Part shown: positions 266 through 45,472 of the stretch, piece after piece
Numbering within the stretch: the stretch's first letter is position 1
Layout: each line of letters opens with the position of its first letter
Assembly: GCA_963752155.1 (NCBI GenBank)
Contig: CAVVXH010000002.1
Coordinates: 1-64,000 of the forward strand
Source: an uncultured Parachlamydiaceae bacterium
GTDB taxonomy: Bacteria; Chlamydiota; Chlamydiia; Chlamydiales; Parachlamydiaceae
Reading direction: 5' to 3'
Length of the DNA stretch: 64,000 bases
Notes under the pieces: generated by a model
Told to the model about the DNA's origin: nothing
Seen by the model: the letters and a program-made list of their open reading frames with translations, nothing else
Databases searched by the model: none
Made by a program: the position numbers and the translations under genes

Positions 266-724
266 GCGCCTTGCCATTGGTGCCTGACCTGATATTCTGA
301 CATTTGCCGATGCGATAACATTGCTTCCTAAAGGGCAAATGTCAGAATGTCAGGTCTGGAACCAAGGCTGGAACGTTAGGGACTGTGCAACAATAACTTG
401 CACGATTGGGCTGCGCCAAAGCCCCGTGGTTAAGCGATCGAAAGTGACCCCATATTTATAATATGGGGTCACTTTCGATCGCTTAACCACGGGAGCTTTC
501 GCGTTGCCCAATCATACAAGTTATTATTGCACAGTCCCTTACCCCCAAGATTTACGCAACTGAAAAAAGCGTCGTTTTCAATTAATAACAAGATACTAAA
601 TTCTGAGAGGTAACGTTTAGCCTTGGTTCCAGACCTGACATTCTGACATTTGCCCTCCTGGGAGGTTACGTTATCATTGTAGGCAAATGTCAGAATATCA
701 GGTCAGGCACCAATGGCAAGGCGC
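266..724. mobile_element. MITE-like palindromic element A, copy 1 (contains nested element B)
   Basis: 43-bp terminal inverted repeat gcgccttgccattggtgcctgacctgatattctgacatttgcc; related inner inverted repeat; second copy at 4523-4818. Confidence 0.85.
379..538. mobile_element. 160-bp palindromic element B inserted in element A, TTA target-site duplication
   Basis: Ends gggactgtgcaa...ttgcacagtccc; TTA at 376-378 and 539-541; perfect 34-bp central stem (423-456/460-493); copy 2 of A has one TTA and no insert. Confidence 0.92.
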
Positions 725-4522: not shown

Positions 4523-4818
4523 CGCCTTGCCATTGGTGCCTGACCTGATATTCTGACATTTGCCGATGCAATAACATTGTTTCCTAAAGTGCAAATGTCA
4601 GAATGTCAGGTCTGGAACCAAGGCTGGAACATTACCCCCAAGATTTACGCAACTGAAAGAAGCGTTGTTTTCAATTAATAACAAGCTACTTAATCCCGAG
4701 AGGTAACGTTCTGGCCTTGGTTCCAGACCTGACATTCTGACATTTGCCCTTTTAAGAGGTTTTGTTTTTTGTTTAGGCAAATGTCAGAATATCAGGTCAG
4801 GCACCAATGGCAAGGCGC
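4523..4818. mobile_element. MITE-like palindromic element A, copy 2 (empty site for B)
   Basis: Direct-orientation homologue of 266-724; similarity continues about 50 bp to the right in both copies. Confidence 0.85.
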
Positions 4819-5006
4819 TCTAAAAGTTTGTTATTTCCCGATAGGGAACGCCACAGGCAACTGATTCGCTATGTGCTAACAGACATTTAATTTGAAGCAA
4901 GGAAAGGAAAATGCCGCTGGATTTTATTGGTTTTTAATGATATGATGGCTTTTTTATAGATCAGAACATTTATTAAACACCACCACTCAACAATCCTTAA
5001 GGTCCC

Positions 5007-17281: not shown

Positions 17282-17339
17282 TGATTTTTACATCCTATTG
17301 CCGTTATGCTTATGTATAGAATATAGGAGAAGAAAGATC

Positions 17340-18775
17340 ATGAAACCATCTTAGTTTATAGGACGCGAAGCCGAAATGAATAGGCTTAGAGGGCTCCTAG
17401 AAAAAAGAAGCGCGAGCCTTATAGTGGTAAGGGGGAGAAGGCGTATTGGAAAAAGCACGCTTCTTGCAGAATTTGGAAAAGAAATGAAAAGTTTCTTCTT
17501 TTCAGGAAACCCTACCAGTCCGCGAGACAACAGCTCAAACTCAGCGTGAAGATTTTGCACGTCAGCTTGAGAGAGCCGGTATTCCAGGGATTAAGCCCGA
17601 TGATTGGAGCAATCTCTTCTGGTACCTCTCAAAGGAAGTAAATAAAGGTCGAGCCTTTATTGTATTCGATGAAATTTCATGGATGGGAGGAAAAGATCCT
17701 CATTTTTTAGGACATTTGAAAACTGCTTGGGATATGTATTTTAGCAAAAATCCACAACTAATTATTGCTCTTTGCGGGTCCGTATCGTCATGGATTGAAA
17801 AAAACATCCTCAGCAGCACAGGATTTCTTGGAAGAATTACTTTTGATCTTATGCTTGAAGAGCTCCCATTAGAGGTCTGTAATGCTTTCTGGCATCCAAA
17901 AGAAAAGCGTATTACCTCTTACGAAAAGTTCAAGTTGTTATCTGTAACAGGAGGTGTGCCACTTTATTTAGAACAAATCAAACCAAATCTTCCTGCAGAG
18001 CAAAATATTCAAGATCTTTGTTTTACTAAAGGTGGCTTGCTGGTGCGGGAATTTGATGAGATTTTCTCAGATCTTTTTTCTCGCACTAAAACTAGACATA
18101 AAGAAATTGTTCTATGCTCTTGCCAATGGTCCAAAAGAGCTTAGTTCAAATTTGCAATGAATTAGGGAAAAGTTTGGGAGGGATATTCAGCAAGCATTTA
18201 GATGAATTGGTAAAGGCAGGTTTTGTAAAAAGAGACTTTACATGGGATCTAAAAAATGGGAAAGAAGGAAAATTGAGTCGTTATCGATTAAGTGATAATT
18301 ATTTGCGATTTTATTTGAAATATATAGCTCCTAATCGTTCTAACATAGAAAAAGAAAGCTTTTCCACCTTAATAACTCAACTTCCTGGTTGGGAAGGGAT
18401 CATGGGATTGCAGTTTGAAAATCTTGTCGTTCATAATAGAAAGACTTCTCTGGAAGATGCTAGGGATTGCTCCAGAGGAAATAGTCATGGAAGGTCCATT
18501 TTTTCAAAGTCATACGACTAAGCAAGCTGGATGTCAAATTGATTATATGATTCAAACTCGATTTCATAATTTATATTTGTGTGAAATCAAATTTTCTAAA
18601 GGTCTTGTCAGCATATAAGATTATTGAGGAAATGGAAAAAAAAAGAAAGAATTTAAAAATTCCTAAAAACTATTCTATCAGGCCTGTTCTTATTCATGTG
18701 AATGGAGTAGAGGAAAGTGTTTTAGATGAGAGATATTTTGATAAAGTCATCGATTTTGGCCAGCTTTTATCCTAA
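17340..18775 (+). pseudogene. Disrupted ATPase-wHTH-PD-(D/E)XK paralogue 2
   Basis: TAG at codon 5, then FIGRE...GRRRIGKS; frameshifts near 17515, 18115, 18445, 18615; fragments align with paralogues 1 and 3. Confidence 0.9.
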
Positions 18776-27955: not shown

Positions 27956-28637
27956 CAAGGACAAGGATAAGGACAACAACAATAAGTTATCGCTTGTGTC
28001 TTTGTTGTCGTTGTCGTCCTCACGATACAACGATAAGAATGATAAGAACGATAGGAACGATAAGAACGATAAGAATGATAAGAACGATAGGAACGATAGG
28101 AACGATAAGAACGATAGGAACGATAAGAACGATAGGAACGATAAGAACGATAGGAACGATAAGAACGATAGGAACGATAGGAACGATAGGAACGATAAGA
28201 ACGATAGGAACGATAGGAACGATAAGAACGATAGGAACGATAAGAACGATAGGAACGATAAGAACGATAAGAACGATAGGAACGATAAAAACGATAAGAA
28301 GATACAACGATACAGACAGATTTCTAGACGAGTCGAAAAGTCAATCTTTCTTCATATAAAATGATGTTCACCACCTTCTTTCAATTATAATTTTTACCTT
28401 TTTATCATTTTTATCGTTCCTATCATTCCTATCATTCCTATCGTTCCTATCGTTCCTATCGTTTTTATCGTTCTTATCGTTCTTATCGTTCTTATCGTTT
28501 TTATTGTTGTATCATTCTTATCATTCTTATCGTTGTATCGTGAGGACGACAAGGACAACAAGGACACAAGCGATAACAGTTCTTTATGCCTTCAGTGTTT
28601 TTTAGTCTTGTTGTCGTTGTCGTCCTTGTCGTCCTTG
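27956..28637. repeat. Large nested palindrome D with inverted 9-bp tandem arrays
   Basis: 30x aa(c/t)gata(a/g)(g/a) at 28029-28298 and about 15 inverse units at 28401-28534; inverted arms 27986-28028/28535-28577; outer gacaag-type repeats. Confidence 0.95.
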
Positions 28638-44789: not shown

Positions 44790-44814
44790 AGATTGAGTCA
44801 AAAGCATGATTCCG

Positions 44815-44924
44815 ATGCATACGCATCAGGATAAGGATAAAGATAAAGATAAGGATAAGGATAAAGATAAGGATAAGGAAAAAGGAAATTAAAATTTTAT
44901 TACCTTATCCTGATGCGTATGCAT
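44815..44924. repeat. Palindromic element F with 8x gataa(g/a)
   Basis: Perfect 22-bp IR atgcatacgcatcaggataagg; a third end copy at about 45305-45337. Confidence 0.9.
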
Positions 44925-44975
44925 TTCGAGTATATAGTTTGACACGTTCTGTTGCTACTGTGGATCAACGGTAAA

Positions 44976-45244
44976 AAACGATAAAAACGATAAAAACGAT
45001 AAGAACGATAAGAACGATAAGAATGATAAAAACGATAAGAACGATAAAAACTATAAAAACGATGGAAAAAGTCTGGTTGGGAAAACCGTAATCGTGGAAT
45101 TAAAATGTTGTGAAAGTTTGGTTCAATTATTCAACTATTTAAAAGTTTCTTCTGGAAACTCAACTTTAAATCGGTTTGTTACTAAATTTCCGACATAGGT
45201 AATTGGAATGACTTTCGTTTTTATCGTTTTTATCGTTGTATCGT
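44976..45244. repeat. Degenerate second member of family D (9-bp arrays in inverted orientation)
   Basis: About 10x aacgataa(a/g) at 44976-45063; inverse units ending atcgttgtatcgt near 45215-45244. Confidence 0.85.
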
Positions 45245-45472
45245 TTGCATCGTTGATTACGTCTACATAAAAAAACAGATCCCGACAACGTCGTGAATGG
45301 ATGTTAATTTCCTTATCCTGATGCGAATGAATTTCGATTTTGAGTGTAGCCACGTAGCCTCTAAATAGTCTAAACCACTTTTCAAAGATAGTTTTTATAG
45401 TTTTTTATAATTTAGTGGTTCAATTTGCGCAATTTCTTAGCTATAACGATTTCACACAGTTTACGTTAATCG

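Follow-up and report, generated by a model that had tools for sequence, protein, structure and literature searches.

Structure of the locus

The window, the whole 64,000-nucleotide stretch analysed here, is the start of a contig (C2) from a Parachlamydiaceae genome of 3.13 Mb that is 80% complete, and it harbors near its left edge two paralogous copies of a palindromic repeat, hereafter called A (Table 1). The first copy reads ggaacg-TTA, then a 160-bp element hereafter called B, then TTA-cccccaag, whereas the second reads ggaaca-TTA-cccccaag, with ggaaca at 4626-4631 and a single TTA. A further conserved module follows the right arm of both copies (725-790 and 4819-4873) and is sometimes found inverted before the left arm, suggesting that A grows outward in layers. 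The window also encodes an AAA ATPase (PF01637, 1002-2429) with a paralogue about 16.3 kb away (about 17300-18750) and more copies in the genome, and it contains 9-bp and 6/12-bp tandem arrays in both orientations (27975-28550 and 44800-45260). Elsewhere in the genome, two multi-copy ORFs (C1:76690-77304 and C11:327042-328559; 6 and 7 copies) look by eye like an IS607-type resolvase and TnpB pair.

Table 1. Positions in the window of the features that make up elements A and B
Feature	Positions	Strand	Basis
Left TTA of the duplicated target	376-378		read in sequence
Right TTA of the duplicated target	539-541		read in sequence
Element B, 160-bp non-coding palindromic MITE	379-538
B left terminal inverted repeat (TIR), ISAzo13-like	379-403	+
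B right TIR, ISAzo13-like	514-538	-
Core of B common to other chlamydial MITEs; right arm with one additional base	418-499
Perfect 34-bp stem of B (423-456 with 460-493; loop 457-459)	423-493
Repeat A, filled: two inverted, self-complementary arms of about 105 bp, B in the spacer adjoining the left arm	266-724
Repeat A, empty paralogue, one TTA at 4632-4634	4523-4818
Free 31-bp B remnant (956-986) with TAA on each side, directly upstream of the ATPase ORF at 1002	953-989
Lone decayed B end following TAA	40967-40997	+

Comparison of the filled with the empty site bore out the element boundaries and the 3-bp TTA duplication that a sequence-only reading of this DNA had proposed. That reading had also described the insert as almost wholly a hairpin with a perfect 34-bp stem, and the whole as a palindrome inserted into another palindrome, and both descriptions held: the stem pairs throughout around a 3-nt loop, positions 376-541 fold at -83.5 kcal/mol (z = -22), an energy equalled by none of 200 shuffles, and the host repeat A likewise folds as a long hairpin. 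The second copy had been taken as the empty site of the first. It does lack B and has one TTA, but it falls within a more divergent subfamily in the tree of A copies, and is thus a paralogue of the filled copy, not its direct ancestor. The 375-539 joint present in X1 and X3 (one sample) is accounted for by empty A paralogues; contigs of one other run carry B with a different left flank, and those of another run an empty A.

Copies of B in the genome

Most copies of A are empty. Among the 58 matches to A with both flanks, 44 lack B and 14 contain it, in forms of 159-160 bp (six), 75 bp (five) and 54 bp (three). Eleven one-flank matches comprised three empty sites, one filled, one half-filled and six that were without a left arm or due to chance; with one further half-filled copy found outside this census, the genome totals about 47 empty A sites and 17 with B or part of it. 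Two-ended copies of B number 32, of 31-160 bp, after exclusion of one 1105-bp chance pair, and identical TTA or TAA triplets flank 26 of them. Outside A, such copies number 17, with TTA or TAA on each side in 16 and the same triplet on both sides in 13; the target of B is T(T/A)A in general. Since about 47 A sites are empty and free copies of B lie at T(T/A)A sites, B is inserted: its presence in A is an insertion, not the remainder of a deletion that produced the empty copies. No empty paralogue of a free B site was found in the source genome.

Overall, 75 loci in the genome match B or its core. Like other MITEs, B is dispersed in many copies with unrelated flanks, and is short and non-coding with terminal inverted repeats, its arms pairing end to end. 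Most full copies are of 159 bp, the copy in the window having one extra T in the loop. Stops in all six frames of the two copies translated rule out a protein-coding B. Two of 26 free copies fall within a naive ORF call, both at the 5' end of the ORF, and in four of the 26 the TAA stop of a gene serves as one flanking triplet. A search of Rfam returned only 19 matches to miRNA hairpins, all below the gathering score.

The shorter forms of B (75, 54 and 31 bp, from 159 bp) appear to be hairpin deletions at microhomologies. Indeed, five of the eight short forms within A equal a prefix plus a suffix of full-length B with no mismatch, joined at GCT or TTGC overlaps, and the other three need 3-6 extra changes; a TTGCAC overlap accounts, but for 1-2 mismatches, for the three 31-bp forms tested. 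The long hairpin would thus collapse by slippage between short direct repeats, yielding the 75-, 54- and 31-bp forms.

Relation of B to ISAzo13 insertion sequences

The ends of B point to the ISAzo13 family. In a genome of the same bacterial family that carries B-type copies (G012), an intact ISAzo13 (L246; NF033519, 568 bits, cut-off 200) can be read directly as TTA-TIR...TIR-TTA, with a TIR 18/25 identical to the end of B. A survey of 23 ISAzo13 loci from 12 genomes gave a TIR pair for 19, with 4 unresolved. The flanks were TTA/TTA in nine, TAA/TAA in six, ATA/ATA in one and TTA/TAA in three, that is, a direct 3-bp repeat in 16 of 19 pairs and TTA or TAA in 15, a tally that leans to this pattern because the TIR finder demanded a G after the A and rewarded matching flanks, and to which several loci contribute as copies of one element. 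The best ISAzo13 ends match B at 20-21 of 25 positions (L279, L293, L310 and L312) and share with it an inner AATAAC block; no IS end is identical to that of B. A weight matrix built from 29 IS ends scored the two ends of B at 22.9 and 24.9 bits, against a background of -9.4 ± 6.5 over the 50,375 TWAG sites of the source genome, and 89 of the 90 best TWAG sites were B-like ends. Free copies of B show an orientation bias (11 TTA/TTA vs 2 TAA/TAA, p = 0.022, some of the calls being weak), unlike the ISAzo13 elements (9 vs 6, p = 0.61).

B thus shares with the chlamydial members of ISAzo13 the 25-bp end motif and the 3-bp TTA or TAA target flanks, but has neither a transposase nor the interior of the IS; as in type II MITEs, the likeness is confined to the TIRs. 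The core motif of B was not found in the ISAzo13 loci screened, and two matches to it occurred in loci from an IS630 search. An ISAzo13 DDE transposase acting in trans would, very probably, recognise the 25-bp ends and, cutting T(T/A)A with a 3-nt stagger, insert B there. Weighing against this link, no gene for such an enzyme was detected in the 80%-complete source genome (no PF07592 candidate, no tblastn match at E ≤ 0.01), and two congeners have no PF07592 match. ISAzo13 is also rare, being present in 4 of 73 genomes of the family and 22 of 401 in a sample of the phylum. The exact end pattern of B occurs in 4 of the 73 family genomes and at 16 metagenome loci, none of which holds an IS-sized pair of exact B ends. 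With the gene of its enzyme missing from the assembled genome, B may now be immobile by itself.

The host repeat A and an associated tyrosine transposase gene

A is present at 164 merged loci in the genome, about 60 of which are of at least 280 bp, and is dispersed as inverted doublets, as are the repeats associated with TIRYT and RAYT enzymes. A single-copy Y1_Tnp gene of the genome (contig C10, L001:1453-2478; PF01797, 52 bits, cut-off 23; NF047646, 71.7 bits, below the cut-off of 80) has A-type arms on both sides, in tandem and inverted arrays. These arms align with the arm in the window over 98 columns, only the loop differing, and are devoid of B. Such an arrangement, in which inverted repeats flank the transposase gene, is described for RAYT/REPIN and TIRYT repeats in the accessible text of PMC3116915 and PMC3733652. 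A shares with them inverted self-complementary arms that also border a Y1 gene, but its arms are of about 105 bp, compared to REP units of 20-40 bp in the same texts, and it appears to bear a MITE as cargo. A is hence best viewed as a repeat associated with a tyrosine (RAYT/TIRYT-like) HUH transposase, which would be its putative means of movement. The spacer of A was not found outside the source genome among 72 genomes of the family, where only arm matches occurred, in two congeners.

A second RAYT gene is located on contig C11 (L002:760-1325; NF047646, 98 bits, above the cut-off); upstream of it lie tandem and inverted repeats of its own, which differ from those of A.

One insertion or many

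The nested state, represented by 17 copies, most likely goes back to one event. The seven full B copies within A differ from one another by 0-2 columns, and the six free full copies by 5-41 from one another and by 4-36 from the form within A. The same end of B comes first in all 16 copies with a preserved left junction, and B occupies only one of the 13 TWA triplets of A. Two well-supported divergent clades of A (10 and 3 rows) are entirely empty. The outer flanks of the filled copies differ, which indicates that these are not one segmental duplication. The near-identity and common orientation of B within A, together with the emptiness of the divergent clades, favour one insertion into what would be the youngest subfamily of A, after which A::B dispersed as a composite. 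Taken as a whole, the sequence comparisons depict B as a gene-less MITE that bears ends of ISAzo13 type and duplicates T(T/A)A. An ISAzo13 DDE transposase probably provided its mobility in trans; B likely entered the spacer of A a single time and was then probably carried along as A spread. Provided that the ISAzo13 step is right, a single insertion into the spacer with later spread of A::B along with A is quite probable; this spread would proceed via the HUH transposase of A or by gene conversion between A copies.

The same element and enzyme could also have struck the TTA of A many times, if this site were a hot spot for one recently active variant of B. IS targeting of REP-like hairpins is indeed known (accessible text of PMC3116915 and PMC10969869), and the orientation bias of free B would agree with it. 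So would the tree of 49 A copies, in which the filled ones form no clade (11 changes vs a shuffled mean of 13.1; one-change trees in 0% of 200 bootstraps) and the backbone of one filled copy has exactly the sequence of an empty one. However, this tree is star-like, with 34 of 44 inner branches open, and the scatter of the filled state could stem from gene conversion or from precise loss at the TTA as well as from repeated targeting. Moreover, a variant active 17 times should have struck elsewhere too, but none of the six free full copies has the sequence found within A, the closest being four columns away. We consider repeated targeting unlikely.

Other enzymes and the deletion reading

A REPIN-like identity, in which B would move as a single strand through an HUH (RAYT/IS200-like) enzyme and the TTAs would be a shared cleavage site instead of a duplication, is very improbable. 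B is almost entirely hairpin, with a conserved bulge and the orientation bias, and the genome has two Y1 genes; neither of these is flanked by B, however, each having its own repeats, and the ends of B correspond to those of a DDE family whose flanks agree as well. In five B-rich or core-rich relatives, the core lies near only 3 of 16 Y1 loci, which overlap or neighbour each other in one repeat-dense genome, and it does not bracket the gene. With the Y1 genes surveyed bracketed by neither B nor its core, RAYT was rejected as the enzyme of B; the REPIN/RAYT and TIRYT description suits the host repeat A. The analysis thus supports the view that the two palindromes would depend on different kinds of transposase.

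Some IS5 groups have a TWA target and GG ends, and an 877-bp IS-like unit with TTA-GGG ends was found at one locus (L214). The ends of this unit part from those of B after the first bases, whereas the ISAzo13 ends share the inner AATAAC block as well. In the source genome PF13586 has no match, and none of three weak PF01609 matches is bracketed by B ends; no IS630 or IS5 gene was found there with PF13358, PF13586 or the L207 protein described below. Mobilization of B by an IS5-family transposase is therefore slightly less credible still than that by an HUH enzyme. Least probable of all is that B is an ancestral part of A, since, even if hairpin deletion does erode B and an empty site would be restored exactly by loss between two TTAs, empty copies outnumber filled ones (about 47 vs 17), the divergent clades and the arms of the Y1 gene are without B, and B outside A is of greater age and diversity than within it and occurs in genera that lack A; we consider this reading refuted as a general account, but some young empty A copies may be secondary losses.

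A core shared across Chlamydiota

B-like sequences were found in 18 of 40 relatives, with the 82-bp core conserved and the outer 38-39 bp variable. In Chlamydiota, the core recurs at a fixed distance from three types of ends, one ISAzo13-like and two IS630-like. When the ends of 66 dereplicated core elements were sorted by a rough rule, 29 had TA-TA on both sides (target, then element), 14 were TWA-GG, 12 were CTAG-T and 11 were mixed or unclear, the latter mostly decayed or mis-sorted. Each of the three classes matches IS ends, that of B being ISAzo13. An IS630 gene (L207; NF033545, 135 bits, cut-off 100) has the CTAG-type arm of a Rhabdochlamydia MAG (L046, G041) as its left end, and in L199, read by eye, such an arm closes the 3' end of an L207-type IS630 gene; agreement with IS630 ends reaches 23/24 for other CTAG arms and, with a different IS630 subgroup, 20/24 for TA-TA arms. 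The search pattern specified one bulged core arm. Of the 118 matches, 85 had a partner arm free of the bulge, 33 one that was truncated or unclassified, and none a second bulge; the asymmetry of the core thus persists though the arms otherwise change together. No recurring neighbour gene was detected among 575 open frames from flanking loci. A strand-specific RNA fold of the core elements found no support, since G-T pairs show no strand bias in the 66 elements (35 vs 43 in the core, 68 vs 77 in the outer parts).

Nested arrangements are also seen with these relatives of B. Element C, which has the core of B and TA-TA ends, is nested three times in another repeat of the source genome (C11:55838-55999, C11:159507-159670 and C19:8870-9027), and an empty site for it (C9, near 20234 counted on the minus strand) reveals a TA duplication by comparison with the filled copies. 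At L107:2480-2830, two TWA-GG core elements lie head to tail, 163 bp apart, with one triplet in common.

The core might, tentatively, be a portable transposition-helper module, in which the asymmetry (one bulge and two mismatches) and the distance of 38-39 bp to the tips are fixed. Recombination inside the core would let ends of ISAzo13 and of two or more IS630 subgroups replace one another, so that throughout Chlamydiota one non-autonomous lineage would survive the loss of any particular transposase. Our leading guess for its role is that of a helper for the synapsis of the two ends. One core, at L266:1655-1825, combines a B-type (ISAzo13-type) end with an opposite end of IS630 type; situated on a single metagenome contig, it is possibly an end-swap intermediate or an assembly chimera. 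If the helper-module reading is true, the core at L266 would be a swap intermediate, and riding in the RAYT-type repeat A would be a second route of spread after loss of the element's own enzyme.

Comparison with known elements and significance

Mobile elements commonly insert into one another. The nesting itself is ordinary; less expected are the link to ISAzo13 and the sharing of the core. Several type II bacterial MITEs have been described (RUP, NEMIS/Correia, ERIC, YPAL, Nezha and QMITE), which, in the accessible text of PMC10969869 and PMC3733652, are similarly shorter than 500 bp, non-coding and intergenic, with TIRs, direct repeats and a stable hairpin, share only their TIRs with an IS and display a series of length decay. 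B fits the type II definition as worded in the accessible text of PMC10969869. It differs in that its ends point to ISAzo13, that nearly the whole of it is one hairpin, and that among its relatives the interior is kept and the ends belong to different IS families. Rickettsia palindromic elements are likewise palindromes of about 150 bp dispersed in an intracellular bacterium (accessible text of PMC10969869 and PMC3733652), but B has stops in six frames, is intergenic and has a candidate enzyme family; the in-frame insertion in genes with a conserved peptide that marks those elements does not apply to it, and this identity was rejected. No account of B or of any ISAzo13 MITE was found in the literature searched, including the accessible text of PMC9208149 and PMC11602168, and ISfinder or supplementary files may list one.

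The pair of filled and empty sites gives the exact target duplication of an element apparently dependent on ISAzo13, a little-studied family. A shared core with exchanged ends runs counter to the usual view that the TIRs are the one part of a MITE that counts. Finally, if A::B has spread, as is probable, it would be a case of a RAYT-type repeat bearing a cargo of 160 bp.
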